Shown: one piece after another, positions 904 through 29,670 of the stretch
Layout: each line of letters starts with the position of its first letter
Position numbering within the stretch: the first letter of the stretch is position 1
Source of the DNA: a virus
Lineage: Duplodnaviria; Caudoviricetes
DNA length: 64,000 bases
Direction: 5' to 3' (one strand)
Virus record (IMG/VR): IMGVR_UViG_3300003937_000325
The notes under the pieces: generated by a model
Told to the model about the DNA's origin: nothing
Seen by the model: the letters and a program-made list of their open reading frames with translations, nothing else
Databases searched by the model: none
Position numbers and translations under genes: made by a program

Positions 904-2820
904 TTAAGTACAATCATTATATGTCCCTAAAGCTATCTGTATTTGAGTCGAGTAACCCCCACTATATACAGTTTGCCAGAAACTATTCATATTTATACAA
1001 GCCGTGACCGTAGTAGTAGATTCACCACCTAGTATTATAGTAACAACATCACCATTACAAGTTTTTACATTACTTAAGGTTATTTGTGATGATGAAGTAT
1101 TATTCACACCAAACCCTGTTTTACAACCACAATAAGTGTCTGAACAGTCAGTCACTATTGAATATCTATATGCCGCACTCGGCCAATTAGTACCAATTGT
1201 AGTATTATTCTGACTTGACGTTATAGTAAAAGTTTTACCACCTAAAGTATAACAAGTATTAACCCCTTGCGATGGTACAATTTCCTGAACAAGTGCACCT
1301 ATTCCAGCTAATCTGGCAGCACTTATAGTATCACCACTACTTAATGATGACGCTGTTCCCGTATCCATTTGTATAATCATTGTTTTATTATTCACACATC
1401 CTTCAGCTAATATATGTATTGCTTCACATTTACCACTATTACTACAATCACTATTAATTGTATTTAGAGTTGGATTTAATAATGGTGCGCTAGCATCATA
1501 CGGGACTTTTTCATAACATTCGTCAATAGTAAATTGTTGACTCAATTGATTGGTTATCGTAAATACGAAACTTGCAAAATCATCATCATTTAATGTGGTA
1601 TTAAAGGTTGTTGGAGCAACCATTAAATCAGACATACTAGGTGTTAAACCGGCGTTACACAATCTATATGTAGTTGGTAATGATGGGGAACTACTTGTTG
1701 GTGTAGGAGTATTTGTAGGAGTTAAAGTAGGTGTATTAGTAGGTGTATTTGTCGGAGTTAAAGTAGGTGTATTTGTTGGCGTATTTGTCGGAGTTAAAGT
1801 AGGTGTTAAAGTAGGTGTTAAGGTAGGTGTTAAAGTAGGTGTTAAGGTAGGTGTTAAGGTAGGTGTTAAGGTAGGTGTTGGCGTTAAAGTCGCATCAGGT
1901 GTAGATGTAACACTTGGTGTAGGTGTTAAGGTAGGTGTTAAGGTAGGTGTTAAGGTAGGTGTTGGCGTTAAAGTCGCATCAGGTGTAGATGTAACACTTG
2001 GTGTAGGTGTGATAGTAGATGTATTGGTTGGAGTATTAGTTGGTGTGTTAGTTGGAGTATTAGTTGGAGTTGGAGTTAAAGTCGCATCAGGTGTAGATGT
2101 AACTGTCGGCGTATTAGTTGGTGTTAATGTAGCCGTTGGTGTTTGACTTACGTCTATAGTGTTTGTTGGCGTAGCGGTATTTGTTGGAGTAGGTGTTGGT
2201 GTTGGAAAACCACAATCCTCAGTTGTAAAAGATACACTACATGTCGCACCATTTACACAACCTTGGTATAGCCAATTTGTTGTATTAGGTGAAGGAAATA
2301 TCGGAGCCGGATTATAAAATGTTACACCAGCTAAATTCCAACCTGAAATTTCCCATCTTGTACCTGACCACTGTATTGAACCATTATTTGGTGAAATCCA
2401 TTGATTTTGTCCATTAAATAGTGTTGTCGATAATGTATATCTAACCGTCTCCGTAAATCCATTACCTTCAAACACACCATCATAATAAGTGACATTTAGA
2501 CATGGTCCTGTAGCACTAGGTGTAAGTGTTGGTGTTGGCGTGAGAGTAATAGTAGGGGTAACAGTAGGTGTCGCTGTCGGTGTAGGTGATGGTCCGAACC
2601 CGAAACATTCACAAACCACACATAAATCGGCATCTATAACTTTAATACAAAACGGTATATTTTCATAAATTGTCGGTAAATTAAATGTCGCAGGAAAATC
2701 AGCATTAGTCGCCACCTGACCAAGATATGTTTGTTGGGATAACGCATCACAACTATCAGCCACCCATATTTGAAATGGTGATACTCCTGTCGCACTATCT
2801 ATACCTACTGTTGTACTCAT
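904..2820 (-). CDS. Mucin-like Thr/Pro-repeat putative virion protein (638 aa) with Cys-containing flanking modules
   Basis: Central (TPTL/TPTN)n tract, Trp-rich N-terminal domain, C-terminal Cys modules; lies among structural genes. Confidence 0.8.
1793..2010. repeat. 7 x 12-bp tandem repeat (GTTAA[A/G]GTAGGT, 1793-1876) followed by an 84-bp-period duplication (starts at 1877 and 1961)
   Basis: Read directly from the sequence; encodes (PTLT)n and the [12 protein letters not shown] cassette. Confidence 0.85.
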
Positions 2821-2926
2821 TTATTTATCTATTATATTATTATAGTAACTCACATTATTAAGTGAATATGTTATTTTACTATAAGTATTTATCTCTCTTT
2901 CAATTTTATTTTTTTTATCCATAATA

Positions 2927-5900: not shown

Positions 5901-8900
5901 GTATTTGTAGGAGTTAAAGTTGGACTTAACGATGGGGTATTTGTTGGAGTATTAGTCGGTGTAACCGTTGCAGTATTTGTAGGAGTTAATGTGGGGGTTA
6001 AAGTTGGTGTAACGGTAGGAGTATTTGTCGGCGTGTTAGACGGGGTAGGAGTTATGGTCGCATCAGGTGTAGAAGTTACACTTGGAGTTATTGTCGGAGT
6101 ATTAGTAGGAGTATTAGTCGGAGTGTTAGATGGTGTATTAGTAGGACTTAACGATGGAGTATTAGTCGGTGTCAATGTAGGTGTGTTAGTCGGCGTAACA
6201 GTTACAGTATTCGTAGGAGTTAAAGTTGGACTTAACGATGGAGTATTAGTCGGTGTATTAGTTGGGGTATTAGTTGGAGTTAAGGTAGGAGTATTAGTCG
6301 GGGTATTCGTTGGCGTTAATGTAGGTGTGTTAGTCGGAGTATTAGTTGGAGTTAAGGTAGGGGTATTTGTCGGAGTTTGAGTTGGTGTATTAGTTGGAGT
6401 ATTTGTCGGTGTGTTAGTCGGCGTAACAGTAGTGGTATTTGTCGGAGTAGGCGTTAATGTTGGAGTATTTGTTGGAGTAACAGTTGCAGTATTTGTTGGT
6501 GTTAATGTAGGAGTATTAGTTGGTGTTAATGTAGGTGTATTAGTAGGTGTATTAGACGGAGTAGGTGTTAGTGTTGCGGCTGGTGTTGAAGTTACTGTTG
6601 GAGTATTTGTAGGCGTTAAGGTAGGTGTGTTAGTTGGAGTTAAAGTAGGTGTATTAGTCGGAGTAACTGTCGCAGTATTTGTAGGTGTTAAAGTAGGACT
6701 TAACGATGGAGTATTAGTCGGGGTATTCGTTGGTGTTAATGTAGGTGTGTTCGTTGGAGTAACCGTCGCAGTATTAGTAGGAGTTAATGTAGGCGTATTA
6801 GTCGGTGTCAATGTAGGTGTATTAGTCGGTGTCAATGTAGGTGTTGGTGTTATGGTTGCGTCGGGTGTTGACGTTACACTTGGAGTTATTGTCGGAGTAT
6901 TAGTAGGCGTTAATGTTGGTGTTACCGTAGATGTGTTTGTTGGTGTTAAGGTAGGTGTCGGTGTAGACGTATTAGTCGGGGTATTAGTTGGAGTTAATGT
7001 AGGTGTGTTTGTTGGCGTTAATGTAGGTGTTAAGGTAGGAGTTAGAGTTGGTGTAACCGTTGGTGTATTTGTAGGAGTTAAAGTCGGAGTATTAGTAGGT
7101 GTTACCGTAGCCGTATTAGTTGGCGTTAAAGTAGGCGTATTAGTCGGTGTATTAGTAGGTGTTGGTGTAGATGTATTAGTAGGCGTAACCGTTGAGGTAT
7201 TAGTAGGAGTTAATGTAGGTGTGTTTGTTGGCGTTAATGTAGGTGTTAAGGTAGGAGTTAAGGTAGGCGTATTAGTTGGAGTTAAAGTAGGGGTATTAGT
7301 TGGAGTAGGAGTTATGGTCGCATCAGGTGTAGAAGTCACACTTGGAGTTATTGTCGGAGTGTTAGTTGGAGTTAAGGTAGGCGTATTAGTTGGAGTTAAA
7401 GTAGGTGTCGGTGTAGATGTATTTGTAGGTGTAAGGGTAACCGTGTTTGTTGGCGTTAATGTAGGAGTATTAGTAGGAGTTAATGTAGGTGTGTTTGTTG
7501 GTGTTAAGGTAGGAGTTAAGGTTGGCGTATTTGTTGGGGTCAGAGTCGGGGTGTTAGTAGGTGTTAATGTAGGAGTATTAGTAGGTGTTAATGTAGGAGT
7601 ATTAGTAGGTGTTAATGTAGGAGTATTAGTAGGTGTTACCGTTGCTGTATTTGTTGGAGTTAATGTGGGTGTATTTGTTGGAGTTAATGTTGGAGTTAAG
7701 GTGGGCGTGTTTGTAGGAGTTAATGTCGGTGTAACTGTTGCGGTGTTAGTAGGAGTTAATGTTGGTGTGTTAGTAGGTGTTAAGGTTGGCGTATTTGTTG
7801 GAGTAACTGTAGCAGTATTTGTAGGCGTTAAAGTTGGACTTAACGATGGGGTATTAGTCGGAGTTAAGGTAGGAGTATTAGTAGGTGTAACCGTTGCAGT
7901 ATTAGTCGGAGTTAAGGTAGGAGTATTTGTTGGAGTTAAGGTAGGGGTTAAGGTAGGGGTTAAGGTAGGAGTATTTGTCGGAGTAACCGTTGCAGTATTT
8001 GTTGGCGTATTTGTTGGCGTATTTGTTGGAGTTAAGGTAGGGGTTAATGTTGGAGTTAAGGTAGGGGTTAATGTTGGAGTATTTGTCGGAGTAACCGTTG
8101 CAGTATTTGTTGGTGTATTTGTAGGAGTTAAAGTAGGAGTTAAAGTAGGAGTTAATGTTGGCGTATTTGTTGGAGTATTTGTCGGAGTAACCGTTGCAGT
8201 ATTTGTTGGTGTATTTGTAGGAGTTAAAGTAGGAGTTAATGTTGCAGTATTTGTTGGAGTTAAGGTAGGGGTTAATGTTGGAGTATTTGTCGGAGTATTA
8301 GTTGGTGTAACCGTTGGTGTATTTGTAGGTGTTAAAGTAGGTGTTAGTGTCGGGGTATTTGTCGGGGTTGGTGTTGGTGTATCTGACGGACAAGTACCAC
8401 ATGATTCACAAGAATTAAATAAATCATCAGGAATTAACTTACCATCCTCACCTGCTCCACCTTGCGATTCACCCGTAATCTCATAACAATCACCTAACCA
8501 TTTTAAATGGGTTCCACCATATTGTACGCTCGGTTTTAGACTCCCTTTACCACATGGTACCGTTAATTTTACAACTATTCTTTCTTCAGTACAACAGTCT
8601 TCTAATTCTATTATCCAAAATTGACAACCAATCTCTTTTTCATAACATTCTTCACAATCAGGAAAATCGGGAAAGTTAAATAATCCATCAGTACCATCAC
8701 CTCCAAGATTATTAGCGTAATAACAACAATTATCAATAAAAAAAACATTGTTATTTGATACTATATTTGCCGCATCAACTGCGGGAACTAATATACTTTT
8801 CTTTAGAATACTTGTACAACAGTCATACAGTGTTATTTCTCTATAATCAATACTTCTTGTTGGAGTTATTGTTGGTGTTGGTGTTGTAGTAATTGTTGGA

Positions 8901-10234
8901 GTCGGTGTTGGTGTCGGTGTCGGACTTTGTGATGGAGATGGTTCCGAACATGGAAATAACAACTTACATTCTTTACAATCTTGTTCGGGATTAGGATTTA
9001 CTTGTGGTCCGCCAGCACCTCCAGTAGAAACTATTTCGTAACATTCGTTAGCTATTACAAAGGTGGAACCAGCGGGACTAAAAACAGGTGCCTGTACATC
9101 CAAAAATTGAGTTTCGTCACAACATTTTACAGCACGATACCTAGCGTATGATATCACAGGTGTCGTTGGCGTAGGAGTTGGTGTTGCTGTTGGTGTATTG
9201 GATGGGGACGCTCCCGTACAACAATCCGTACAGTCTTCAGAAACACTTGTGATAATTACTGTGGTATTAGATACCGCCTTATCACTAATATCTGTAACCT
9301 GATAACAACAATCATCATCTGGTCCCGGACCTAATGCTGGTACATCTACTGTAACCACCTGACCGAGATATGGACAAGGAATTATTGCAGGTGACTGAAG
9401 AGTAACCCATACCCCATCTAAAGGATATGTACACCCACCTATATCAGGTGGGGGACATAGTCCTGTTATCTCATCACAACGTCTTAATTTTATTTTACAA
9501 ACCGCACTAACTGGTTGAGTGTCACCATCCTCAATAGGTGTCGTACCTGAATCACCAGGACAATTCCCACAATCAGTACCTATCCACACTTGTGCTATTG
9601 TACCGATAAAAGATACTGTTGGCGAGCAGCTCGGACAATCACTTATAGGTATCCAACACGACCCATGACTGTCTTCAAAACCATTAAATCCAACTGCAAG
9701 GTTCGCAGTATTATTAATACATGCAATAGTAAATGGATTATTACAGTTTTGAATACATATCGTACCAACATTATGCACAACATATCCGTCTAATAAATAA
9801 TGAAATGGTCCGTGTAAACTAATTGAAATTAAATCCTCCTTATTGATAGATTTTTCATAACTATAAATGTTCTCTAACAATATACTGTCTTCCGTGATTC
9901 TCACTAATTTGTGGTCATCACCTAAGTATAAATTATTAACATTTTTAAATTCAAAAGTTTTATTTAAAGTATTATATACAAGTATTTCCTTATCCCTTAA
10001 AGATAGTTCATTAATGGTTATATAATCTTGATTTTCTGTGGAAACTTTATTTACCTCAGATGAAGTAAACTCTAAACCATTAATTTCTTTACTTGACCAA
10101 TATTTAGCTTCTTGAACGTCACCATCATTAGGTAAAATAATAGTTTGCAGAGACATACCCTCTTGAACATCTTCAATATTCAAAAGAGTACCATCAAGTA
10201 ATAAAACTTTTTGACCTACTTTATATCCAACCAT
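2927..10234 (-). CDS. Giant 2435-aa putative virion surface/fibre protein: N-terminal Hint domain, Cys-rich modules, roughly 870-aa Thr/Pro tract, C-terminal lectin-like domain
   Basis: N-terminus [24 protein letters not shown]...[10 protein letters not shown] is Hint-like; repeated CxxC modules; TPTNTPTL tract; [13 protein letters not shown] motif. Confidence 0.8.
5760..8385 (-). repeat. About 2.6 kb degenerate coding repeat, ([12 protein letters not shown])n
   Basis: Peptide-level repeat with varied synonymous codons; gives a G/T-rich plus strand. Confidence 0.9.
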
Positions 10235-10252
10235 ATAACTAAATACTTTCTA

Positions 10253-10288: not shown

Positions 10289-11959
10289 TTATGACTCTTT
10301 TCTTAATTTACCATCATAGTGGTCAAATCGGTCATGTTCTGTTGGTGTAAGTAATAAAATACCAGGGTTTATATTACCCTTTACGGTTTCTTGAAAAATA
10401 TATGACATCCAAGTCTGTTCAAATGGTCTTTCCCACTTTTCAGTTAAAAACATTTTTTTATTACCGTACTTAGAGACCACTTGAGGCCAATTACAGTAAT
10501 ATATTTCACCATGGGCATATGGTACACCATTAAAGGAGTCTATTTTAGTTAATTTAGTCTTAGGTGCGTTGGGGTCTAAACCTTGGATGGGTAATGTTGG
10601 TTTTTCTGGCCATTGATTTTCTCTAAAATTTTGAGGAACATTATACCATGCCCATTGAACCCTATTATCCCCATAAAACTCAGTAAATGATAATTTTAAA
10701 AAATCGAAATCATTTTTTTTACTTATTTGTAATGACTTTCTATATAATCCATCAACAAACCTGTTAAAACCGTTTTTACCGACCTCACCTTTCTTAGGAT
10801 AAAAAAACATATCATCCTCAAAAAAGAAATAATAATCATAACCCCTCTTTTCGGCATCTTCGGCAATCCACTGTCTACCACCACATATACCTAAATTATC
10901 TTTTTTAACATGTATTATATCGTGTTCTTTACATAGTTTTTTGTATTCAGGTGTAGTCTCTAAATCAGTGGAATTATCTAATAATATCCATTGAGGTTTT
11001 TCGACAAAGTCTTTATCGTATTGATTCATAGACTTAATTAGTGTTTTAACCTGATTAGGACTATTAAACGTTATAACATACAAACCAACATTATTAATAT
11101 TTAAATCATTACTTTTTATTTTCACCTTGGATTCATTTAAAACTTTATGTTTGTTATTTTTCACATCTTCAAAAAACTTACTTATTAAACCATTACTTTC
11201 GATTGGGAAATATTGATACAAATCAGGATGTCTATAAAGTAATATTGTAAATAGAGATTCTTCAGTACCCATATAACCTTCATTTAACGTACTTTTCATT
11301 AAATTATAATATTGGTTATTAAAATCGGATATAGACTCAACTGGACCACCGAAAAAACCTCCTCTACACACCTTATCAACTTTAGATGATGTTAATTCAC
11401 ACATTTTCTTATAATTAAACCCATGAATTTCATTTTCAGCCTTATATGGGAAAGATATAAATGTTATTTTATCAATATTACCTAACTTATCAATTACTTT
11501 ATCGTGGGTAAAATATCCAGAGTGTACAGTATTCGTAATACCCGCATCTAACCAATATAAATGAGTAGATTTAAATCTATCCATTATCTTAGCGTCATGC
11601 ATTAGAAATACTTTAGACATCACAAGAGGGTTATACATATCTAATTTAGATTGTGTCGATTCACCTAACCAACCCGCCTGAGCTCTCCATTTTTCTGACT
11701 GCCTTATTTCTGAAATCTTATCATAAAACTCGTTTTTAAACCATTTTTGGTCCCTAACTATAAATTGTGTATTTTCTTTTGTTCTTTTTTTAAAAACAAA
11801 CTCTTCAATTTCTTTATCACCAAATATTATAAGATTATACGGTAAATCTAAAAATTGATTAAATTTTTCTAAATAATGTTCAAACGTTCGAGACCACCCT
11901 TCAGATAATTCGTCTCTTTTTATATTCCATAAACCTGTTACTATAGTGATATTATCCAT
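10289..11959 (-). CDS. Two-domain glycan-modifying protein: HtrL/YibB-like N-terminal domain plus GT-A (GT2-like) C-terminal domain
   Basis: TIVTGLWNI...YNPLVMSK...YWLDAG resembles HtrL_YibB. The second half has LYVITFNSP...LLDNS...GICGGRQ...YYFFFEDD, a GT-A-type acidic motif. Confidence 0.65.
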   Translation of the reverse strand: MDNITIVTGLWNIKRDELSEGWSRTFEHYLEKFNQFLDLPYNLIIFGDKEIEEFVFKKRTKENTQFIVRDQKWFKNEFYDKISEIRQSEKWRAQAGWLGESTQSKLDMYNPLVMSKVFLMHDAKIMDRFKSTHLYWLDAGITNTVHSGYFTHDKVIDKLGNIDKITFISFPYKAENEIHGFNYKKMCELTSSKVDKVCRGGFFGGPVESISDFNNQYYNLMKSTLNEGYMGTEESLFTILLYRHPDLYQYFPIESNGLISKFFEDVKNNKHKVLNESKVKIKSNDLNINNVGLYVITFNSPNQVKTLIKSMNQYDKDFVEKPQWILLDNSTDLETTPEYKKLCKEHDIIHVKKDNLGICGGRQWIAEDAEKRGYDYYFFFEDDMFFYPKKGEVGKNGFNRFVDGLYRKSLQISKKNDFDFLKLSFTEFYGDNRVQWAWYNVPQNFRENQWPEKPTLPIQGLDPNAPKTKLTKIDSFNGVPYAHGEIYYCNWPQVVSKYGNKKMFLTEKWERPFEQTWMSYIFQETVKGNINPGILLLTPTEHDRFDHYDGKLRKES

Positions 11960-12573
11960 TACTCTTTTATTTTACAAACCCATACAACTTTATCAAAAGT
12001 TTCTTTCATAAAACTTTTTAAATTATATTTTTCACACGTTTCCTTTATGTCTTCTTCTCCAATTTCTCTCCAATTCCAAATTTTATCCCTATAATTCTCT
12101 AAAAAGTTTTCTTTAGTATCTACATAGTCGTGAGCCATTATAATATCCCCACTTTTTAAGTACTTTGACAAAATTATAAATTCATTGACTTTACTTCCTC
12201 CATCACATAATACTAATGTAGTCCCTTCTCGACCAATGAACGATTCAACCATTTCTGGTTTTTCAATTTCTTTATATGAATGTGAAAAAATATTTTCAAC
12301 AATAATTTCAATATTTCTCTTTCTCATTTCTGGAAACCATTTATGTTCTTTCACTTCAAAAGATTTAATATCTGTTTTTTCTAACCCTATCTCATCTAAA
12401 GTTTCTCTTATTGAGAGTGTTGTCCCCCCACCAGCAGTTCCAATTTCTACTATTTGTTTAGGTTTAATTTCTTTTAATAGCTTTTCAAAAGCACCACTAA
12501 CTTCAGGTTTTTGTTGCATTGTTAGTCTAAAATTTGGTGTTATTTTTGAAATATATGAAGTATGTCCTTTCAT
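11959..12573 (-). CDS. Class I SAM-dependent methyltransferase (Methyltransf_24/CmcI-like)
   Basis: IVEIGTAGGGTT motif I, LVLCDGG, GDIIMAHDY. Confidence 0.75.
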   Translation of the reverse strand: MKGHTSYISKITPNFRLTMQQKPEVSGAFEKLLKEIKPKQIVEIGTAGGGTTLSIRETLDEIGLEKTDIKSFEVKEHKWFPEMRKRNIEIIVENIFSHSYKEIEKPEMVESFIGREGTTLVLCDGGSKVNEFIILSKYLKSGDIIMAHDYVDTKENFLENYRDKIWNWREIGEEDIKETCEKYNLKSFMKETFDKVVWVCKIKE

Positions 12574-12580
12574 TTTTTTA

Positions 12581-13579
12581 TTATATTAATTTTAATTTAT
12601 TAATGACCAATTCCGCACTTTTTGGCCATCTCATATTTTTATCGTACCAATCTCTTTGGTTTTTACTTATAAATTTTAAAAATTCGTCATCGTTTTTTAC
12701 TTCGTTATATTTAGAAATAATTAAATTTGTTACCCCTTCATGACCATTTTTATCAAATTCTAAATATGCATGTTCTCTAGGTATTGTTATATAGTGATAA
12801 TTAGGTATGAAAGCCTCATGTATCTCGCTTTTATATTCTATTCTTATATACGGAACACCAATCGCCATCATTTCAATATCTCTATAACAAAGCTCACCAG
12901 GGTGTTCATTAGCACTATTAAACATATCAACATCCATATAGTGAGATAATGCAATTTTTTGTTTACTTAATTGATTAAGGTAAGTATCAATATGTATATT
13001 ATTAGGGTCTAAATATTTTTTATCATATAGTAATCTAACAACATTTCGGTATGCAGTTTTTTCATCACCTTTCCAACCACCCCCTTTGAAGTACAACTTG
13101 TCATTTAAGATATCAGTATTATCTCTAATTTCTCGGTGTTTATTAACATCAAAATCTTGAAAAAAACCGAAAATAAATGGATGTACCTTATCTAACTTAT
13201 TTAATAGTCTATTTTTTTTTAAGTGTTCAACAATATATCTCCTACTAAAATGTGCTGACATTATACCTAAACATTTATCACTTTTTAGATAATGAACCAC
13301 TTGCGATGTGAAATACTTAGTAAAAGTTATGACAATAAATTCGCCATTATCTAAATTTTCTGCAATAAAATCAACATCACTTAATGGTGGATTATTACCA
13401 AATTGACCCACTTTAGATTGTAAATCTATTCTACCACTAAATGTGCCACCATCTTTATTATAATTAACTACTTCAACCTCTGAAAATTGCTTTAAAAATT
13501 CTATAAATTTTTTATACCAAGGTAAATGATACCTACCCCATTTTTCATTTTGAAACATATGTACTCTCAGTTTTGCCAT
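12581..13579 (-). CDS. Putative glycosyltransferase (GT-B C-terminal half-like)
   Basis: LYFKGG...YLNQLSKQKIALS...GELCYRDIEMMAIGVPYI resembles the Glyco_trans_1_2/exostosin-type C-terminus; sits in the GT operon. Confidence 0.5.
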   Translation of the reverse strand: MAKLRVHMFQNEKWGRYHLPWYKKFIEFLKQFSEVEVVNYNKDGGTFSGRIDLQSKVGQFGNNPPLSDVDFIAENLDNGEFIVITFTKYFTSQVVHYLKSDKCLGIMSAHFSRRYIVEHLKKNRLLNKLDKVHPFIFGFFQDFDVNKHREIRDNTDILNDKLYFKGGGWKGDEKTAYRNVVRLLYDKKYLDPNNIHIDTYLNQLSKQKIALSHYMDVDMFNSANEHPGELCYRDIEMMAIGVPYIRIEYKSEIHEAFIPNYHYITIPREHAYLEFDKNGHEGVTNLIISKYNEVKNDDEFLKFISKNQRDWYDKNMRWPKSAELVINKLKLI

Positions 13580-13590
13580 ATATATCTACA

Positions 13591-14859
13591 CTATAAATTT
13601 CCTATTATTCGTTCACCCCAACCTTTAGACTCTGAAAATGGCCAAACTACCCAATACTTAGGTTTTTCAGCTGTAGGGAACTCTCTCCAAACTTTACAAT
13701 AACCTGCAGGGTCTGTCATCATTCGTTTAATCTCGTTTTTATCCGCATCCTTTCTAAATAAAGTCTTATCATCTTCTCCATGAAATGCAACTACCCAATA
13801 TTCATAATCTTTTTCAGGTACTTTATCAAACCCAACATCTATACAATGTTTAAATATTGAAGAAAAACTTTCTAACCATTTTTTCTCACCACCAAGTTCT
13901 TTTATGCCTGGATTTGGTGGATAATTTTTATCAATAGTATGTTGTTGTATAGCTCTTTTTGAAAATAGTAAACCTGAATACTCCTCATATTGCCTTAAAG
14001 TTCTTTCAGTACCAAACCCATATATACCTTCGTGACCTTCTTGTTTTTCACCATCCATACCAAATAACTTTCTATTAGTTAAATGTGAATGACTATTTTT
14101 TTCTCCCCATGTACTATCATCATCCCATTGTTTAGTTCTACCCTTACGAGTATACTCATGCCAAATCAATGTTTTATGTGGGTGAAATAAATCATATCCC
14201 CATGTAAATGCCCTAACTGCGATTGATATTTCTTCCCCGTGAAAATAATATTCTGGATTATGTTGTACTTCTTCAGAAAACTGACCTAAGGTAAAGCACA
14301 TATGTGCCGAATAGAACCTTGATGGTACTGGTGTATCTAATTCCTTCCAATTCGGTATTGTTTCAGGTAAGAAAAATACTGCACCTTCAGGAATAAACCT
14401 ATCAAAAGCCATTCTCCATGGTTCCATAACTCGTCCTTGAGGGTCGTTATCGGGGTTATATGACGACACATAACCCGTTAACAATGGTTTAGGAATACCT
14501 ATTTTTTGGAGGTCTTTAACCATCTTTATTAGTTCTGTATCCCAATTTGGTGCAAATCTCATATGTGAATCAATTTGTAAAGTATACATTTCACCACCAT
14601 AAAGTTGTTGAACTTGATTTCTAGCCCAACATACTCCTTTAGCATCAGTATAAAGTACATCACTAATTCGGAACCTTTTATCGTCTCGATACTTATCTAA
14701 GTTATCAAATCCGTCCTCAGGGTGATATTGTCTACAAATACCTAACACTAAATTCTGAGGTTTCTTAGCGTTCTCCAACATATCCTCAATAGTTTTCACT
14801 AATTCAGGGTCTCGATATGCGGCTATTTGTACAAAAATTGTTTGTGGTTTACGAGCCAT
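13591..14859 (-). CDS. GT60-like (Pfam GlcNAc; Gnt1/Skp1-type) polypeptide or hydroxyproline alpha-GlcNAc transferase
   Basis: TIFVQIAAYRDPEL, KGVCWARNQVQQLYGGEMYTLQIDSHMRF (DxH motif), FHGEEISIAVRAFTWGYDLFHP...WHEY. Confidence 0.75.
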   Translation of the reverse strand: MARKPQTIFVQIAAYRDPELVKTIEDMLENAKKPQNLVLGICRQYHPEDGFDNLDKYRDDKRFRISDVLYTDAKGVCWARNQVQQLYGGEMYTLQIDSHMRFAPNWDTELIKMVKDLQKIGIPKPLLTGYVSSYNPDNDPQGRVMEPWRMAFDRFIPEGAVFFLPETIPNWKELDTPVPSRFYSAHMCFTLGQFSEEVQHNPEYYFHGEEISIAVRAFTWGYDLFHPHKTLIWHEYTRKGRTKQWDDDSTWGEKNSHSHLTNRKLFGMDGEKQEGHEGIYGFGTERTLRQYEEYSGLLFSKRAIQQHTIDKNYPPNPGIKELGGEKKWLESFSSIFKHCIDVGFDKVPEKDYEYWVVAFHGEDDKTLFRKDADKNEIKRMMTDPAGYCKVWREFPTAEKPKYWVVWPFSESKGWGERIIGNL

Positions 14860-15901: not shown

Positions 15902-15917
15902 GTTCTTTTTTTATTTT

Positions 15918-15958
15918 GGCTATGGGAGAGAAATGAATCTCTCCCGTTAATTATAGTC
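15918..15958 (-). promoter_or_regulatory. Structured 5' leader: 8-bp hairpin followed by ATAGCC, 16 nt before the ATG
   Basis: GGGAGAGA-TTCATT-TCTCTCCC-ATAGCC, preceded by TATTTATC at 15963-15970. Confidence 0.55.
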
Positions 15959-16008
15959 TATTGATAAATAGTTTCAATACAATTTATATTGATTTTTTTT
16001 ATCCTTAA

Positions 16009-18120: not shown

Positions 18121-18171
18121 TGTTATTTTGTTTTTTAATTGGTTATTATCCCTATTTTATTAGTAAGGCTG

Positions 18172-18624: not shown

Positions 18625-18642
18625 TTTATTTTTTTTTCTTAA

Positions 18643-18672
18643 GGCTATTGAGGGAAGGAGGACTTCCCTCAA
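18643..18672 (-). promoter_or_regulatory. Structured 5' leader: 10-bp hairpin overlapping ATAGCC, 18 nt before the ATG
   Basis: TTGAGGGAAG-TCCTC-CTTCCCTCAA-TAGCC; same architecture as 15918-15958. Confidence 0.55.
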
Positions 18673-18747
18673 AATTTTAATTATTATTCTTTATTATTAA
18701 ATAGATATTCTAAGTAATAACATTGGTTATTATAACTTTTATTTTAA

Positions 18748-20193: not shown

Positions 20194-20205
20194 TTTTTTA
20201 TTTTT

Positions 20206-21684
20206 TTATATAATGTGTTTAATTATCCTGATATTCCAGGTCCCCCCTAAAATATTGGCTTTTAGTAACGCATCGTTACCATTCAATTCCATCCCCCATG
20301 AAAAATTATTAGTTGTTCCTATATCAACCGTTGAGAAATCATTGAAATCTATATCAGTACTCGACCATACCGCTTGTATTGTTCCAGCCCTATAGTTAGT
20401 ACCATCATCAATTACATAATCAAAGAACACTGCTCTATATGTTGTAGTATCCACAGAATCAATAGTTGTCCCACTAACCGAAACATTAGAATCATTTACT
20501 AATCCAATATGTGTTAATATTTCTAAACCTGTAATTTGTGAAGTTGTTCCATCATTATTATTTAATGTAATAGAACCACCTGAATAAGTACCCCCTGTTA
20601 CTTCAGCCGCAAATGTTCCAGCATTAAAATCAACACCATCATTTAAACCTAACGTTAATGTCTTAGTTATTTGATTATATGACATACCTGTCACATATGT
20701 ATCCTCAGTAGTCCCTGTTGTAAAACCTGTTAGTGTAACTACAGAACCATCACTATTTTTTAACTCAACTGTACCCGAACTATTATTATAAGTACCACCC
20801 GTTAATTCAGTGTCAGTTGGTTGTTGCCATTGTCCATCACCCCTATAAAATGTTTTATCGTTTGCTCCACCACCATTATTTATTAAAGCAATGGTCATTT
20901 CATCAGGGTTAATCGCCGCGTCGGTAGCTATACCCGCACCTCCTGGTTCTTGGTAACCCGTGAAATTTAAAGTGAATCCATCAACAACCTCAATTGGTGT
21001 AGTAGGTACGTTATCACCAGATGCCGTCCACCCTGTATATGACCCTGTACCACCCGTAGTAAAACCTGTAACATTGAATGTTCCACCCGTACTATTAGTA
21101 AAGACCGCAGTACCATTACTATAGGTACCACCTGTTACAGTAATATCGGTACCGTAAAATATTTTCCATCTGGCGTTTGCTCGTGTTACTCCACTTACAC
21201 CTTCTATTGATGAATCTAACCAAGCATTTATGAAATTAGTACCACCAACGTTTGGTGCGAACTGTGTACCCGAACTAATTGTGGTAGTCGTGTCACCAGT
21301 TTCTACCGCACCACCAGCAAAGGCATCATCGTATAGAGTTTCATAGTTATTTATAACATATTGATAAACTGTGTCCGTTTCATGAACATAAACTAACTGA
21401 CCTAACCTTCGTCTACCAGATGATATTAAATCGTTATTAAGTGTTATTATGTTAGATTGAAAAGGAGCTAGTCTTTGATAGTATTCGATAGGGATTCTAT
21501 TAGCTTCTTCCCGTATATTACCTGTACCAATAATAGTAAAAATAAGGTCACTAAGAGCCCATACTTCAGTATATCCACCAACTAAACCAGCACTAAAAGT
21601 TGTACCCTTAGTATCGGTTCTAATTACTGATAATGTACCATTTACTATATCAGTTGATAGTGGATTTTTATATATGAATGACAT
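20206..21684 (-). CDS. Fibre-like structural protein (492 aa)
   Basis: TGGTY repeats; C-terminal FDYVIDDGTNYRAGTIQAVWS domain paralogous to the C-terminus of 18748-20193. Confidence 0.6.
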   Translation of the reverse strand: MSFIYKNPLSTDIVNGTLSVIRTDTKGTTFSAGLVGGYTEVWALSDLIFTIIGTGNIREEANRIPIEYYQRLAPFQSNIITLNNDLISSGRRRLGQLVYVHETDTVYQYVINNYETLYDDAFAGGAVETGDTTTTISSGTQFAPNVGGTNFINAWLDSSIEGVSGVTRANARWKIFYGTDITVTGGTYSNGTAVFTNSTGGTFNVTGFTTGGTGSYTGWTASGDNVPTTPIEVVDGFTLNFTGYQEPGGAGIATDAAINPDEMTIALINNGGGANDKTFYRGDGQWQQPTDTELTGGTYNNSSGTVELKNSDGSVVTLTGFTTGTTEDTYVTGMSYNQITKTLTLGLNDGVDFNAGTFAAEVTGGTYSGGSITLNNNDGTTSQITGLEILTHIGLVNDSNVSVSGTTIDSVDTTTYRAVFFDYVIDDGTNYRAGTIQAVWSSTDIDFNDFSTVDIGTTNNFSWGMELNGNDALLKANILGGTWNIRIIKHII

Positions 21685-21738: not shown

Positions 21739-24681
21739 CTAAATTAAACTACCCCCTCTAATATAATTAGCTGTGGTATCTACAACACCCGAAGCCCCTT
21801 GGTTCCATCCTCCATTACTAGAGAATACTCGATATGTTCCATTCGGCCAATTTGAGCCCGTATATGTAATATCAAAACGTCTAAGAGTACTATCGGTAGT
21901 TAATGGACTTAAACTATTTGGTGCTCCCGCGAAATTAAATTGTACATCACCGTAAACTAAAGATGATGAGTCTAATAATGAATGTGGTACCCATATCGAA
22001 TACCATACATTACCTGTAGTCGTATTTGCAATTATTTCAGCAGTTTCAAATACAAACGCATCTATTGGATTTCCTTGACTATCACTACCTCCCGTAACTT
22101 GAGGTACTGGAACTTTTATAACAGGCGGTACATTCGCTGTTCCATTAACAAATCCTGGCCAATCCATATAAATCTTTAAATCTGCTACATTAGTCCCATT
22201 TACTCCCGAACCTCCTTGGAAACCATACCAAGATGATGCACCTGTATTAAACATATATCGTAAAATATCCGTATTTGGATTTGAACCAAATACTGAGTCA
22301 TCAGCTGATTCCATAAATATTAACGCTTGTTTGTCTTCTTCTGGTCTCAATGATGGAGTCGGAGTTGGAGTAATAGTATTAGTCGGAGTCATAGTCGGAG
22401 TATTAGTTACTGTTGGTGTAGGTGTATTAGTTGGTGTATTAGTTGGGGTATTAGTTGGCGTGTTTGTTGGAGTATTTGTTGGAGTGTTAGTAGGTGTAGG
22501 AGTGTTAGTCGGTGTATTCGTAGGAGTATTTGTCGGTGTCGGGGTGTTAGTAGGGGTGTTAGTTGGAGTATTCGTAGGTGTATTAGTCGGCGTATTCGTA
22601 GGTGTGTTAGTTGGAGTATTTGTTGGAGTATTTGTCGGTGTTAGGGTAGGAGTTATAGTTGGTGTGTTAGTTGGAGTATTTGTCGGTGTGTTAGTTGGCG
22701 TGTTAGTTGGTGTGTTAGTAGGCGTGTTCGTAGGAGTATTTGTTGGAGTATTGGTTGGTGTAGGAGTATTAGTAGGAGTGTTAGTTGGGGTGTTAGTAGG
22801 AGTATTAGTTGGTGTGTTTGTTGGAGTATTAGTTGGTGTGTTAGTAGGGGTACTAGTTAGTGTTGGAGTTATTGTTGGAGTTATTGTTGGAGTATTAGTT
22901 GGAGTGTTAGTTGGAGTATTGGTTGGAGTATTAGTCGGTGTATTTGTAGGAGTTAATGTTGGGGTATTAGTAGGAGTATTTGTTGGTGTGTTAGTCGGAG
23001 TATTGGTTGGCGTATTAGTCGGAGTATTAGTTGGAGTATTAGTTGGAGTATTAGTTGGCGTATTAGTTGGGGTAGGAGTATTAGTTGGCGTATTCGTAGG
23101 AGTATTTGTCGGTGTGTTAGTAGGAGTATTTGTTGGTGTGTTAGTCGGAGTATTAGTTGGAGTATTAGTTGGAGTATTTGTCGGTGTATTTGTTGGAGTA
23201 TTAGTTGGAGTGTTAGTAGGTGTAGACGTATTTGTCGGAGTGTTCGTAGGTGTGTTAGTTGGAGTTAGTGTTGGAGTTAGTGTTGGAGTTATTGTTGGAG
23301 TTATTGTTGGAGTATTCGTAGGTGTGTTAGTTGGCGTATTCGTTGGCGTATTCGTTGGTGTATTCGTTGGAGTAGGTGTTATAGTTGCGTCAGGAGTTGA
23401 AGTAGGAGATGGTGTTACAGTATTAGTAGGAGTTAATGTTGGAGTATTAGTCGGAGTATTAGTCGGTGTATTTGTAGGAGTTAATGTTGGAGTATTAGTA
23501 GGAGTATTGGTTGGGGTGTTAGTAGGAGTATTAGTTGGAGTATTAGTTGGGGTATTAGTTGGGGTGTTAGTAGGGGTGTTAGTAGGGGTAGGAGTTATAG
23601 TTGCATCAGGAGTTGAAGTAGGAGATGGTGTTACAGTATTAGTTGGGGTATTAGTTGGTGTATTTGTTGGAGTATTGGTTGGAGTGTTAGTAGGAGTATT
23701 GGTTGGAGTTTGTGTTGGAGTATTAGTCGGCGTATTAGTAGGGGTGTTAGTAGGAGTATTGGTTGGAGTTTGTGTTGGAGTTTGTGTTGGAGTATTAGTC
23801 GGCGTATTAGTCGGCGTATTAGTCGGAGTTGGTGTCGGAACGTTTGTAAATGAACCATCAACCACAAAATCACAATCTAAACCTGACGCTGTCGGAGTTG
23901 GAGTTTGTGTTGGTGTATTAGTTGGTGTTGGTGTTGGAATATTTGTAAATGAACCATCAACCACAAAATCACAATCTAACGTTGATGTTGCTGTCGGAGT
24001 AGGGGTTACAGTACTAGTTGGAGTATTAGTTGGAGTTACGGTTGGAGTAAGACCTGATGTTGGTGTTGGTGTAGGGGTTACAGTACTAGTTGGAGTATTA
24101 GTTGGCGTCGCCGTTGGCGTAATAGTTGGGGTAAGACCCGATGTTGGTGTCGGTGTAGGTGTTACAGTACCAGTAGGAGTATTAGTTGGCGTCGCCGTTG
24201 GCGTAATAGTTGGAGTAAGACCTGATGTTGGTGTTGGCGTAGGGGTCACAGTACCAGTAGGAGTATTAGTTGGTGTATTCGTAGGAGTACTAGTTGGGGT
24301 AATAGTTGGTGTGAGACCTGATGTTGGTGTCGGAGTAGGAGTTACAGTACTAGTTGGAGTATTAGTTGGTGTGTTAGTCGGAGTTGGAGTAAATCCTATT
24401 GTTACTGTTGGCGTAGGAGTTGGAGTTGGAGTTACATCGTCATCATAAACAATTATTTTTTTGGACACCGTCTCATCGTTACAACCTGGTTGCTTATTAA
24501 CGACAAAAATAGTGTATTCAATACCTGCAACTGAACCTGGTAAATCTAAAACAACACCCGCAACTATTTGGTCTCTAGTAATACCCGTTCTAATAGGCAC
24601 AGTCTGAGTAGAACCCGTGTGAATATCAAACGGTCCAACCGCATTTGAACTTAAAGTTAATCTTATTATTACTTGACCCAT
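21739..24681 (-). CDS. Mucin-like Thr/Pro-repeat protein (980 aa)
   Basis: About 700 aa of (TPTN)n between small N- and C-terminal globular domains. Confidence 0.8.
22340..24430 (-). repeat. About 2.1 kb degenerate (TPTN)n coding repeat with sub-repeats ([11 protein letters not shown] x4; [13 protein letters not shown] x2)
   Basis: Direct inspection. Confidence 0.9.
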
Positions 24682-24792: not shown

Positions 24793-27700
24793 TTAGCAAC
24801 CTCCTCCGATTCCACTACAATTACCACCTAAACATGTTAAGAAACTTGTTACAACACCGTTACTAACATTAAAAACACATCCCGTATCTGAAACAAATGC
24901 TCCGTTACCTAACAGTACGTAGTTACCACCACTAAAGGCGTAAACCGAATTACCTGTAGGACAATCTAAGAACGTAGATGTTAGTACATCTGTAAAATAT
25001 TCAGTAGTTGGAGTGTCCCCACCAATAAAGGCATTACATGGTTGTGAGGAACCTCCTCCGTGAAGTCCGAAGAATAGACCTAATGAGGCATATCCTGGAG
25101 GTGTCGTATCACATGGGTCAAAACCTGTAATGAAATTACCAGAAGGACAATCATTATACATTACTTCTTCAGTACCAAATCCTAAATCTTTTACCACTCT
25201 AACCCAACTAACATCAGAGTGACAAGATGAACCCCCAGTACAGTTTTGATTAGGTCCTGAAAATATACATGCACAATTAAACGAGAAGTCAATAAGACCA
25301 CTAGAAGAAGCCGCCGCTATAGCCTGAGCCTGTGTCGAATCAATTGATAATTGACTATATCTATCCCTATTACTTTGACCAGGATAACCAGAACCCCCTA
25401 CTAAAGTAGAATCAGGTGGGTAATTTAGAAGGTCAGTAAATCCACCGTTATTATTCATAGATACCTGACCAATATTTATACCATTCGCTATAATATCAAA
25501 CCTCGCTCTATTACATGTGTGACCCCCATGACAAGGCGAACCGTTTGCAGAGCTCTGATTATATTCAACTATAAATGTTAGAGACTCAATACAAGTAACT
25601 AAAGGTAGTGTTGTCGGTGTAGGTGTTGGAGTCGGTGTTGGAATTAGAGTGGTTGTTGGTGTTGGAGTCGGAGTACTTGTTTGTGTTGGAGTTGGAGTCG
25701 GTGTAATATCATTACAACATATATCGTACACTATTTTAGTACTTAATCTAAAGTACACATTCTTTAATTCTTTACAGTCCGAAATAATTGTTATTAAATT
25801 TTGGTCAATATCTAATGTGAAACTTTCAATTTGCGGTATCGTTTTAAGTATCTCATCAATTGCGTTCATCCAATCTTGAGCACTAGGATAGTCACCTAAA
25901 GTAGTTCCTGTATAAAATGGGTTTTCTACGTGATAAGGAGGTGTCAGTGTACCACCTGAAAAATCAACTATAGCATAAAAAACGGCATTTACTAACGTAC
26001 AGTTCTGATGTCCAACAGTTAAATCAAGGTAACCCTCATTTAACATAGAACCAAAATCTCTAATACCCGCTGAAGTAGTAATAAAATCGTTTTCACATAT
26101 TTCATTTACTTCATAACATTCAACAATTTGATTGTTACAGTTAATAGTTACCGACTCCGTAGCACTACATCCGTTATCATCAGTAATAGTTGCGGTATAT
26201 GTACCACCACTTAAACCTGTAATTGACATCGTAGTCTCACCATTACTCCATAAAATATTAAATGGAGCAACTCCATCGCTAATACTAATATCTGCCATAC
26301 CATCATCACCTGTAACACATTCAGTAGGAAGTATTATAAAGTTTACTCCTGTAGATGGGGCGATTGTTATAGTTTGAGAAACTGTACAGTTTCTTACATC
26401 AATAACATTTAAAAGGTACGTTGATGGTGCCAACGAAGTAATTGACTGAGTATTTGATGGGTCATCAATAACGGAATAAACAACTGAACCCGTATTAACA
26501 TCAGTTAAGATATAATCAAATGGACCCTGTAATGGAACAGAACCCGCAGTTAGATTAATATCTATTATCCCATTGTTATCACCACAAGTACCATCAGTGA
26601 TAGTACTATTAACGTTAAATTTAACATTATTACTTATAGTTTTATCAGTACTATATGTACAGTTACCATTTTGAGATACAATTGTAACCGTATATGTACC
26701 TGAAGGTAAGTTATTAAAAGTATGACTTTGTGAACTAGTTGTTGTACTATCAGTAATTAAACCATTCGTAACCTCATAAGTGAAAATTCCCGCAGGTGCT
26801 GATATACTTATCGATATTGAACCATCATCGTTACAATCGGAATTAGTAACCCCTATATTAACAATGGTGAAACCTGCAGTTGAAGGTATAGACTGAATTG
26901 CCGTAACTGAACAACCACCCGCATCTGTAATAATAGTACTATTAAAACCTCCACATAATCCTGTAAATGATTCTGATAAATTATTAGAAGTTATTACTTC
27001 ACCTGCACTATTTTGGTATGTATATGGTGAAGTACCTCCCGATATTGTTACCACAACTTGACCATCACAATCAAAACAACCCGCTTGTGTTGGTACGGTT
27101 GAGACTATACCTAATGGGTCAGCTAACCCTACGTTAATACTTTGACTTAATCTACACCCTTCAGAATCTGTAACTTCAACACCCCACGAACCCACGGATA
27201 ATCCAGTTGCTGTTTGTGTTGTTTGTCCGTTGGACCACAAGTATGTGTATGGTGGAGTACCACCTAATAAATTAGTAACAGTCGCAGTACCCACACCAGG
27301 ACCACACGGAGAATCAGGAACAACTAAAATATTATAACTAATTGGGTCCGTACTTACAACTGTCGTATTTGTTGTTTGTGCGATTGCACCTCCAAAATCT
27401 GTAACAATACAGTAGTAGGTTGCGGGACCAATATTTGTAAATGTCTGTGTATTTGAAAAACTATTAAAAGATTGAAAAATAGTTCCCGAAACCGTATCGT
27501 ATAAATCATATTGAAATGGACTAGATAATGAATCATTTGTAACTGTTACAACTCCGTTGATATTTCCACATGTCGTACCTGAAGAAGTTATAGTGGCATT
27601 AAAACAACCTTCAACATTAACATTAATAACCACATCTTGATTAACCCCACCTGAACTATCTTGAAGTAAAAAGACATAACTACCTTCATCAACACCACCC

Positions 27701-29670
27701 CAACTAAATGGTCCGTTACCTGTTTGTTGACCTAATAGTAATCCACCCGCCGCAGTGGTTGACGTATTTTGAATAGTATATGGTTTTGTACCACCTGAAG
27801 GACTTATTAATATAATACCACCTTTAGGATTAGTACAAGTACCTGTAACTTCAAAACTATAAGTTATCGGACCTTCATCACAACTAACAACACATACGTC
27901 ACCACTAATTTGTACACCTTGCATCGAAACATTAATATCAACACATACCTCTAACCCTACTTCATTACCTTGTTGTAATCTTCCACAACAATCCGTATAC
28001 GTATAAAAACCATCTGTAATACCTGAAAAACAACCCTCCCCCACATTTGAAGTTGGTGTTGGTGTGGGTGTAGGCGTAGGGGTATAACTAGGAGGGACAA
28101 AGGGACTTGAAGTTGGTGTTGGTGTGGGTGTAGGCGTAGGGGTATAACTAGGAGGAACAAAGGGACTTGAAGTTGGCGTGGGAGTTAGAGTATTTGTGGG
28201 AGTAGGTGTAGGAGACAATCTAACTTCAGGTGAAGGTGTTGGTGTTGGCGTGAGAGTATTTGTAGGGGTAGGTGTGGGTGTAGATTCTTGACATATAATG
28301 TCAGTACACTTTATTGGCCCCACTGAAGCAACACTATTATCCCAATATATTATAGTAACATAAGGTTCTAAAAGTGGTTCATTAATTCTATTATAACACC
28401 CATTAACTCCACCTACATTTTCAAATAAATAGCCATTAAAAGGTGGGCTCGTATATAAATCATTATCAAAATCTATAACATTAAATCTAAATATTTTATT
28501 ACCTGAACACGCAGAAAAATAATAATATTCATCTAACTCAGAAACATTATTTTGACAATCAGTACAATTTTCATAAACGTTTGTTATTTCATGTCCTGAT
28601 GTTATATTAGTACTTATTAGTACTTGGTCAACTTTATCCGTTTCACCACCAAAACAGAACGTCTTACTTTCAACGAATTGCGGCGTTATAAATCCAGTTC
28701 CAAGCGGGTTACCCCACGTTAACGTTGAAGCACTAAAAGTACTTTGACCCTGATTTACCCCGTTACAATCATTACCAGATGGTTGAAATTTATATATATT
28801 ATTAAATGGATTATTAGAAACACAATCGGAACAATCAGAATACCAATTTGATACTATGTCGTAATAACCAACACCTAAAGTACCTGAATAGGGTTGTTGA
28901 ACATTATTAGGCTTTAAACACGGACCCCCCCATATTGAAGAATATGATTCTACCCTATCCCTCATATCACCAGAATATTGCACACCACTCGAATCTGTTA
29001 TTAAATTACCGTAACAATCATCGGACATTGTAACCCACCCATCATATAAACCGTTAAAGTAGTTTCTGGCGTTTGTTGCGAAATAGGGTATTTGTGTATA
29101 ATATGACCCTAAACCACTTACTAAGTCTGATGTAATAGAACTGGCATTATTAAAATCATAGTTTAAAACCCCATTATTAGTAATGTGACTATAATCATTT
29201 ACACTTGTTAGAAAAATAAAATCATACCTATTAGTATCCGCACCACCTATTACTTTTGATAAATCATTAAACGTATTTGCACTATAAAAATTAGTACTGT
29301 ATCTAGGAGATTTAAATGTCCCACTTGGACCTATTACATCAATATAGTTTTGAGCGAAAAATGTTGTATTAATATTAAACGTTGAACCTATATAAACCGC
29401 GACTGAAGTATCTGATACCTTACTCCAATATTCACCTGTAACCATTTGAGTGTCAAAAGGGATTGTTGCTGAACCTAAATTTGTAGCTTTCCAATATCTT
29501 GACCTAAATGACCAAGTTGTATCAGGGTTAGTAAGTAGATGGTTCTCCGTAAACGCTCTATTTAATCCTGCGGGTGTAGCCGCATCGGGCCAAGCCATAT
29601 ATACGGTAGAACCTGTAGTTGGTGAACCTACAGTCGCTATTTGTTCTAATTTAAAATATAAAGTCGCCAT
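24793..29670 (-). CDS. Large putative virion protein (1625 aa) with SprB-like repeats, Cys modules and TP linkers
   Basis: [37 protein letters not shown] and [36 protein letters not shown]. Confidence 0.7.
28047..28176. repeat. 60-bp near-perfect tandem repeat (about 2.2 copies) encoding [18 protein letters not shown]
   Basis: Lines 28021, 28081 and 28141 align column for column. Confidence 0.85.

Follow-up and report, generated by a model that had tools for sequence, protein, structure and literature searches.

Why would a tailed virus keep a set of glycosyltransferases among giant proteins with long tracts of threonine and proline? The question is raised by a stretch of 64,000 nucleotides (nt) of viral DNA (IMG/VR record IMGVR_UViG_3300003937_000325; Duplodnaviria; Caudoviricetes), analysed as one strand and referred to here as the window, in which four tightly packed minus-strand genes form an operon at 10289-14859, in the company of long genes that encode threonine/proline (Thr/Pro) tracts. 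An original prediction, made from the sequence alone, proposed that the phage runs a mucin-type O-glycosylation system on these tracts. With moderate confidence, we read the operon as a soluble, cytoplasmic O-glycosylation pathway for the Thr/Pro tracts of the phage's own tail-appendage proteins. In what follows, we describe the enzymes, their presumed acceptors and the relatives in which both are found, and weigh other acceptors for the same enzymes.

The first gene of the operon encodes a protein of 422 amino acids (aa) that belongs to glycosyltransferase (GT) family 60. It matches the Pfam profile PF11397 at E 8.6e-65 (219.9 bits, cut-off 21), over profile positions 96-349 and an additional N-terminal block, and phrog_24687 at E 4.5e-164; residues ~300-422 form a C-terminal extension past the Pfam domain. 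Searching 14 control genomes with PF11397 gave no matches. The protein has no relative in the PDB, searched by sequence, and more than 7,200 metagenomic homologues. In a set of 40 phage homologues (32-97% identity), the motif D97-S-H99 (DxH) is conserved without exception, as are H186, E210, D223 and H234. DxH is the replacement of DxD that is specific to GT27 and GT60, and GT60 is restricted to prokaryotes and protists (PMC7185993). The characterised members are protist polypeptide alpha-N-acetylglucosamine (GlcNAc) transferases, which act on Thr or hydroxyproline (Hyp) of polypeptides (PMC8724618, PMC3769586). From its sequence, the 422-aa enzyme is proposed to be a soluble, initiating polypeptide alpha-N-acetylhexosamine (HexNAc) transferase. 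None of the four operon proteins contains a hydrophobic segment, which fits action on phage proteins in the cytoplasm. Both the GT60-like transferase and the compact four-gene operon of the original prediction are borne out by these results.

The last gene of the operon encodes a 556-aa protein which, on the basis of profile matches and structure modelling, is a predicted bifunctional tandem GT-A glycosyltransferase and the conserved partner of GT60. Residues 3-249 match HtrL_YibB (PF09612; E 2.3e-16; 60.6 bits, cut-off 24.1), and the score against the NCBIfam HtrL equivalog (67.9) is far under its cut-off of 264.9, so the protein is a member of the HtrL family and not an HtrL orthologue. An AlphaFold2 (AF2) model computed from a 36-sequence alignment (pLDDT 92.1) has two domains and a disordered linker at residues 277-286, as expected of the HtrL-like/GT-A fusion that had been anticipated, and its N-terminal domain superposes on E. 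coli HtrL from AlphaFold-DB with a template modelling (TM) score by hit of 0.71 over residues 2-262. W136 and D138 are invariant in the first domain, E381 and D383 in the second, where D382 of the same E381-D382-D383 motif is nearly so. Searched with Foldseek as a whole chain, the model retrieves K4 chondroitin polymerase (K4CP), LH3, LARGE1, mimivirus R699, COLGALT1, Pasteurella heparosan synthase 2 (PmHS2) and PgtA, with Myxococcus RfbC also among the structural neighbours. The tandem GT-A enzymes in this list share the two-domain architecture at Foldseek E-values of ~5e-11 to 1e-6, but sequence identity is ~10% and the N-terminal domain of the phage protein is of the uncharacterised HtrL family; their TM scores are 0.23-0.29 because the domains are differently oriented, and the resemblance of the modelled protein to them is one of architecture, not of orthology. 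Among these enzymes, LARGE1 builds a repeating disaccharide on the O-glycan of dystroglycan, while LH3 and COLGALT1 glycosylate hydroxylysine in collagen. The tandem GT itself is widespread, with 198 clusters at 50% identity retrieved at E<1e-30.

The presumed acceptors are four large proteins of 638, 2435, 980 and 1625 aa, whose positions and lengths, all on the minus strand, had been given correctly. Defining a tract as a 12-residue stretch with at least 66% T, P or S, 2,213 tract residues are counted window-wide and 2,149 of them in the four proteins, against the 'well over 1500' first estimated. Among the tract residues are 968 Thr, 542 Pro, 106 Ser and a single Lys, and the Thr:Ser ratio of the tracts is 9.1, compared with 1.11 outside, a chemistry that fits a Thr-specific enzyme. 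The longest single tract is a (T-P-T-x)n repeat of 891 residues (611-1501 of the 2435-aa protein), x being mostly Asn, Pro or Leu. At the DNA level, the pattern encoding P-T-x-T-P-T-x-T-P occurs 252 times in the window, always on the minus strand, and never in 100 shuffles, and Tandem Repeats Finder reports nested repeat arrays with periods of 12-114 bp. Tract length is variable: the N-terminal 618 aa of the 2435-aa protein are 81% identical in the related locus L003, where the tract has a different length. Two long plus-strand open reading frames (ORFs) at 6411-8486 and 22331-24448 were rejected as genes, being antisense artefacts of the repeats, and matches of the tract proteins to phrog_15511 were set aside as apparently caused by the low-complexity tracts themselves.

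Outside the tracts, the globular parts of these proteins are rich in Cys (2.8-3.4%), which suggests disulfide-bonded or metal-binding extracellular modules. Pfam and PHROG searches of these parts matched only an Ig-like domain and the SprB repeats (PF13573) of the 1625-aa protein (E 3.3e-19; E 3.8e-20 on residues 546-1320), and the lectin/adhesin heads once imagined at the ends of the stalks find no family support beyond these two. A Hint/intein-like N-terminus of the 2435-aa protein (residues 1-170, ending in ...GYVVHN), noticed by eye, had no Pfam match at E up to 0.5 and was discarded. The idea that tract genes flank the operon holds tightly on the side of the 2435-aa gene, but on the other side six unannotated ORFs (15169-21684) intervene before the 980-aa gene.

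Is this proximity more than an accident of one genome? Relatives from IMG/VR, designated here by L-numbers for loci and G-numbers for contigs, were compared with the window; their tracts were scored with the PTxTPTxTP DNA pattern, control contigs being sampled via the reversed pattern. Treating contigs as independent, and with controls that are shorter and mostly small phages or other phage types, 15 of 19 GT60-bearing contigs carry the tract pattern compared with 3 of 37 controls (Fisher p 1.4e-7), and conversely PF11397 is found in 10 of 45 arbitrary tract-bearing contigs and in 0 of 37 controls (Fisher p 0.0017). Cultured GT60 carriers behave in the same way: XacN1, Xoo-sp13 and CM1 have 21, 16 and 7 pattern matches, respectively, spread across many large genes, and none of the reversed pattern. 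No PTxTPTxTP match was found in the GT60-less jumbo phages RsoM2USA, Phosso, Xanthomonas phage XbC2 and Vibrio phage 2.275.O, which were chosen from a DNA-polymerase search with the XacN1 enzyme, RsoM2USA being the nearest match outside the GT60-carrying group.

Gene order points the same way. Immediately after the tandem-GT gene comes a tract-rich ORF, both in the window and in L003, L004, L006, L007-9/17 and L015. Contig G041 has a fibre module homologous to that of the window (the 302-aa protein 77%, the 988-aa protein 52% and the SprB protein, a homologue of the 1625-aa protein in syntenic position, 35% identical), and there a GT60 of only 37% identity, lacking the tandem-GT partner, again stands between tract-bearing genes. 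Roughly five to six GT60 lineages can be told apart, namely the window clade, the Xanthomonas/Stenotrophomonas clade, G017-G019, G041, G029 and G020. GT60 is coupled to tracts both statistically and syntenically, and in one direction; the co-occurrence of GT60-like and TP-repeat genes in related phages, put forward with the original prediction as a way to check it, is positive in several lineages and in a divergent but syntenic cassette.

The cultured phage XacN1 connects this coupling to glycoproteins that have been observed in virions. Its ORF334 (GT60) and ORF330 (tandem GT) are orthologous to the pair in the window, and in this region of its genome (AP018399.1, 203370-223508) the operon that they delimit adjoins a GT9-like gene, the gene of a 3313-aa tract-bearing protein and baseplate wedge genes. 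Even very distant phages thus have the cassette associated with the baseplate/fibre module. Other XacN1 tracts lie in large hypothetical proteins, some of them beside baseplate genes (ORF325) or tail-sheath genes (ORF370, ORF372). XacN1 virions contain at least two glycoproteins positive in Schiff/periodic acid-Schiff (PAS) staining (Fig. S4 of PMC5852040), which its authors suggest are products of the phage's two annotated glycosyltransferases, one of which is ORF334, the GT60 orthologue (PMC5852040).

GT60 and the tandem GT co-occur in most related IMG/VR loci that extend far enough, as well as in the Xanthomonas phages XacN1 and Xoo-sp13, with GT60 at the head and the tandem GT at the end of nearly every such locus. 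A set of 50,697 cultured phage records contains four with GT60, and these four are also the ones with a full-length tandem GT: XacN1, Xoo-sp13 and the Stenotrophomonas phages CM1 and RAS14. What lies between the two genes varies by lineage and includes NodU/CmcH-type carbamoyltransferases, GT25, GT10-/GT11-like fucosyltransferases, GT2, a GT4-like protein, an FkbM methyltransferase and a second GT60 copy; other members of the tandem-GT family are fused to an N-terminal TylF or FkbM O-methyltransferase, carbamoyltransferase or sulfotransferase domain. GT60 and the 556-aa tandem GT are a conserved core pair between which tailoring genes are swapped, and such an arrangement, with initiator and extender conserved and tailoring enzymes exchangeable, would be expected where diversifying selection acts on a surface glycan.

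Such a glycan might instead belong to the host, if the enzymes modified lipopolysaccharide (LPS) core, O-antigen or capsule, for example in superinfection exclusion or receptor masking. LPS-core gene clusters are the origin of the HtrL/YibB family, the 556-aa protein has the polysaccharide polymerases K4CP and PmHS2 as well as Myxococcus RfbC among its structural neighbours, and polysaccharide termini are a typical place for carbamoyl and methyl caps. However, the cassette brings no flippase, ABC transporter, polymerase/ligase or membrane anchor, all four of its proteins are soluble and the characterised GT60 enzymes all act on polypeptides; the cassette moreover sits in a tail-appendage module, and its coupling to tracts spans hosts from Xanthomonas to presumed Bacteroidota. 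We consider modification of the host envelope unlikely, and return to the phage's own proteins as the substrate.

Three small contigs, G017, G018 and G019 (loci L022, L023 and L024; 24-29 kb), also carry a GT60 gene, 51-53% identical to that of the window, together with Pro/Thr tracts. CheckV rates them 83-100% complete, and one has direct terminal repeats; in L022, a 774-aa Gly_transf_sug/Caps_synth protein replaces the tandem GT. These contigs may represent small phages, or else satellite-like elements, in which the glycosylation theme recurs.

The two middle genes of the operon in the window were expected to encode a GT-B-like protein and an S-adenosylmethionine (SAM) methyltransferase, and here the prediction fares less well. 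The 332-aa protein has no match in Pfam, NCBIfam or PHROG, and its single-sequence AF2 model is poor (pLDDT 38), but its language-model (Atlas) feature neighbours at 0.95 carry the GT-B-type families Glyco_trans_1_2, GT90 or RXYLT1_C. It is present in L003 (99.7%), with partial or weak homologues in L019/L020 and G022, and is possibly a GT-B-like enzyme of the extension step, as a lead only. The 204-aa protein matches Methyltransf_24 weakly, below the cut-off (E 8.5e-4; 20.6 bits, cut-off 26.3), and has weak NCBIfam matches including rhamnosyl O-methyltransferase (E 0.0068); it has one homologue in L015 (48%) and two in G022. Comparison with the TylF domain fused to the tandem GT of relatives (29% identity over 77 residues) led us to reject this stand-alone protein as an orthologue of that domain. 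The existence of tandem GTs with fused TylF or FkbM domains nevertheless suggests that the neighbouring methyltransferase in the window acts on the same glycan, and from its sequence we propose it as the enzyme of a sugar O-methyl cap. For the initiate-extend-cap pathway of the original prediction, the make-up of the cassette is that of multi-step glycan building with a methyl cap, although the cap depends on this weak methyltransferase match.

Several observations weigh against glycosylation of the tracts by this operon. The GT-B and methyltransferase assignments are weak. A TATTTAT motif stands 6-20 nt upstream of five genes of the structural module (minus-strand gene starts 10234, 21684, 24681, 42705 and 45083), at 20 nt for both the 2435-aa and the 980-aa gene, and was not found upstream of the GT operon, which gives no sign of co-expression, from a shared late promoter, of the enzymes and the tract proteins. 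Shared ancestry inflates the coupling, most GT60-positive contigs falling in one aquatic clade (50-97% identity), and four GT60-positive fragments have no tract, including G020 (68 kb), whose GT60 is 32% identical and has no partner. As many as 35 of the 45 tract-bearing contigs are without GT60. Of the 10 whose completeness is 90% or more, 9 lack it, so the enzyme is not required for tracts and the coupling runs from GT60 to tracts only. XacN1 also has its GT9-like gene, the proteins behind its glycoprotein bands were not identified (PMC5852040), and the C-terminal GT-A domain of the 556-aa protein bears a faint likeness to DNA glucosyltransferases.

The many tract-bearing phages without GT60, and the XacN1 bands that are not assigned to proteins (PMC5852040), would also be seen if the cassette glycosylated other virion proteins (capsid, sheath or tube termini) and the tracts were plain flexible spacers common in the same lineages. 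The phage precedent goes in this direction, since it modifies the capsid and tail-tube C-termini, according to the account of Freeman et al. 2023 given in PMC12619734. Yet GT60 is coupled to tracts in several lineages, tract genes adjoin the cassette repeatedly, even in G041 where the cassette has been replaced, and the tracts show a Thr-over-Ser bias; we therefore hold this explanation to be rather unlikely, though it is the rival that we take most seriously.

The likeness to DNA glucosyltransferases consists of matches of the C-terminal GT-A domain to TAGT (PF20691; E 0.0038; 17.6 bits, below the cut-off of 27.5) and to phrog_842 (beta-glucosyl-hydroxymethylcytosine alpha-glucosyltransferase; E 1.2e-5, over 59 residues only). 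Together with the position of the XacN1 operon near replication genes, it would suit enzymes that hypermodify phage DNA, through glycosylated hydroxymethylated or hydroxylated bases, as a defence against restriction. These matches, however, are confined to the nucleotide-binding core of GT-A, the annotated ORFs of the window include neither a base hydroxymethylase nor a TET gene, and the coupling to tracts would be left unexplained. We know of no case of DNA modification by cassettes that combine up to five GT-like genes with fucosyltransferase-like genes and sugar O-methyl-, carbamoyl- or sulfotransferase genes, and regard this role as very improbable.

With the virion tracts kept as the favoured acceptor, the closest known parallels come from protists. 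The GT60 enzymes Gnt1 and pp-alphaGlcNAcT2 of Dictyostelium and pp-alphaGlcNAcT of Trypanosoma cruzi share the PF11397 family and the DxH motif with the phage enzyme, and the presumed acceptors are alike, namely Thr-rich, Pro-containing mucin-like repeats; Gnt1 is soluble, as is the phage protein, which would likewise act in the cytoplasm. In contrast to its protist counterparts, the phage enzyme would act on virion proteins in a bacterial cytoplasm, carries the C-terminal extension of ~120 aa and has no coupled prolyl hydroxylase. The Dictyostelium Skp1 pathway, composed of Gnt1 and the bifunctional PgtA, also combines a GT60 initiator with an extender of two catalytic domains, and PgtA is the structural neighbour of the 556-aa protein at rank 9 (TM 0.27), a low match that reflects tandem-GT architecture only. 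The Skp1 pathway differs in its domain families, which are HtrL and GT-A in the phage, and in modifying a single Hyp, unlike the repeat tracts proposed here.

Gnt1, the founding GT60 enzyme, acts on Hyp of Skp1, and the acceptor in the phage could by the same token be Hyp and not Thr, provided that the tract prolines were hydroxylated by phage 2-oxoglutarate (2OG)-Fe(II) oxygenases. A 97%-identical relative, G002, indeed has two tandem OGFOD2-like/2OG-FeII_Oxy_3 genes beyond the point where the window starts (211 and 203 aa; L285, G002:C1:72000-89100, 7543-8933, minus strand), beside genes for a PALP enzyme and a metallophosphoesterase. These oxygenases are of a common cyanophage type, with homologues mostly in cyanophages, and are not part of the cassette; none is present in XacN1, Xoo-sp13, CM1 or RAS14, so they are not coupled to GT60, and the Hyp route was demoted to a highly doubtful one.

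In the pathway that we propose for Thr, GT60 would first use a UDP-sugar to place an alpha-HexNAc (probably GlcNAc) on the Thr hydroxyls of (T-P-T-x)n repeats in newly made proteins. Further sugars would then come from the GT-B-like 332-aa protein and from both GT-A domains of the 556-aa enzyme, giving either a short defined chain, as with PgtA and LH3, or a repeating disaccharide polymer ended by a cap, as with K4CP and LARGE1, and the 204-aa methyltransferase would O-methylate the non-reducing end. Glycosylation would take place in the cytoplasm, before assembly, and its outcome would be densely glycosylated, extended and protease-resistant virion stalks, which may be stiff and of bottle-brush form. 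Because the genes between the two core enzymes are swapped, the composition of the glycan would differ between phage lineages. A bolder version, to which we give somewhat less than an even chance, is a eukaryote-like mucin-type O-glycosylation in which GT60 seeds alpha-GlcNAc on hundreds of Thr and the tandem GT-A builds chains that are capped, by methylation, carbamoylation or sulfation according to lineage, and are possibly polymers, so that the virion bears bottle-brush fibres of perhaps 200 nm with a coat that diversifies by cassette swapping.

A bacterial parallel for the physical effect is offered by the PT boxes of secreted glycoside hydrolases such as CenA and Cex of Cellulomonas fimi, which are O-glycosylated on Thr and thereby protected from proteases. 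They are Pro/Thr linkers between globular modules, as in the phage proteins, but are 20-100 residues long and modified after export by membrane-associated mannosyltransferases of the host, whereas the phage tracts are up to 891 residues long and their modification would fall to phage enzymes in the cytoplasm.

Glycosylation of virions is already known, from mycobacteriophages and chloroviruses, and was suggested for XacN1 by its authors. In mycobacteriophage virion O-glycosylation (Freeman et al. 2023, as cited in PMC12619734) and in the capsid glycosylation of chlorovirus PBCV-1, virus-encoded cytoplasmic GTs decorate the virus's own structural proteins, as proposed here; these systems rely on other GT families, concern capsid and tail-tube termini or the PBCV-1 capsid protein Vp54 instead of tail-appendage Thr/Pro repeats of a thousand residues, and have been demonstrated experimentally, whereas that of the window is known from sequence. 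For aquatic 'moraphages', four glycosyltransferase families are listed as core, with no assigned role, in a paper of 2025 (PMC12619734). In the literature that we searched, no paper linked GT60/PF11397 with phages or Pro/Thr repeat proteins, in agreement with the original prediction, which knew of no GT60/mucin pairing described in a tailed phage.

If the proposal is right, a function would be given to a very common pair of phage genes, and the giant low-complexity genes that have puzzled annotators of jumbo phages would find an explanation. Mucin-type protein glycosylation, regarded as eukaryotic, would then run in phage-infected bacteria with soluble enzymes. On the bolder version, both the prokaryotic side of GT60 and the HtrL family would receive a first functional assignment, and a virion glycocalyx would be widespread in aquatic and plant-associated jumbo phages. 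The swapped tailoring genes suggest that the surface glycan of the virion is under selection, for example through host adhesion, protease resistance or the avoidance of aggregation or grazing. A soluble GT60 and tandem GT could also be used for glycoengineering repeat proteins in the cytoplasm of E. coli. The cultured phages XacN1, Xoo-sp13, CM1 and RAS14 make the question directly testable.

Features of the window discussed in the text, in order of position
Feature	Position	Strand	Basis or remark
638-aa protein, 219 tract residues	904..2820	-	translation and tract count
2435-aa putative virion appendage protein, 1,099 tract residues	2927..10234	-	directly downstream of the GT operon
556-aa predicted tandem GT-A: HtrL/YibB-like (1-276), linker (277-286), GT-A (287-556)	10289..11959	-	Pfam, AF2, Foldseek
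204-aa class-I SAM methyltransferase-like protein	11959..12573	-	stop codon overlaps start of next gene (556-aa)
332-aa protein, possibly GT-B-like glycosyltransferase	12581..13579	-	Atlas feature neighbours
422-aa GT60-family (PF11397) glycosyltransferase	13591..14859	-	Pfam, phrog_24687
980-aa protein, 703 tract residues, C-terminal globular domain	21739..24681	-	12-bp DNA unit repeated ~121 times
1625-aa protein with SprB repeats, Ig-like domain and two short Pro/Thr linkers (128 residues)	24793..29670	-	PF13573 SprB
Large structural genes, including baseplate wedge gene (42777-44615)	29670..44615	-	phrog_219 baseplate wedge, E 1.4e-24; upstream context

The wider setting is that of an uncultured jumbo phage. 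The window, which looks like a section of a large myovirus genome, is AT-rich (G+C ~29-42% over 2-kb windows), has nearly all its genes on the minus strand and also encodes both ribonucleotide reductase subunits, a DnaB-like helicase and a UvsX-like recombinase. The large structural genes that extend up to the baseplate wedge gene, two of which (302 aa and 988 aa) have conserved counterparts in G041, place the whole block in a baseplate/tail-appendage module. A near-identity search of the operon DNA against cultured phages gave no match. The nearest cultured relatives of the baseplate protein are Flavobacterium phages, at ~27% identity, and SprB repeats are an adhesin repeat of Bacteroidota type, which makes a Bacteroidota host plausible.

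Just upstream of the GT operon, two overlapping minus-strand ORFs of 150 aa (15449-15901) and 112 aa (15169-15507) jointly match the single families phrog_17490 and phrog_28536. Their counterparts are one 377-aa open frame (777-1907) in the relative L004 and lie ~580 bp apart in L003, so the pair at 15169-15901 could be a frameshifted, split or rearranged gene.

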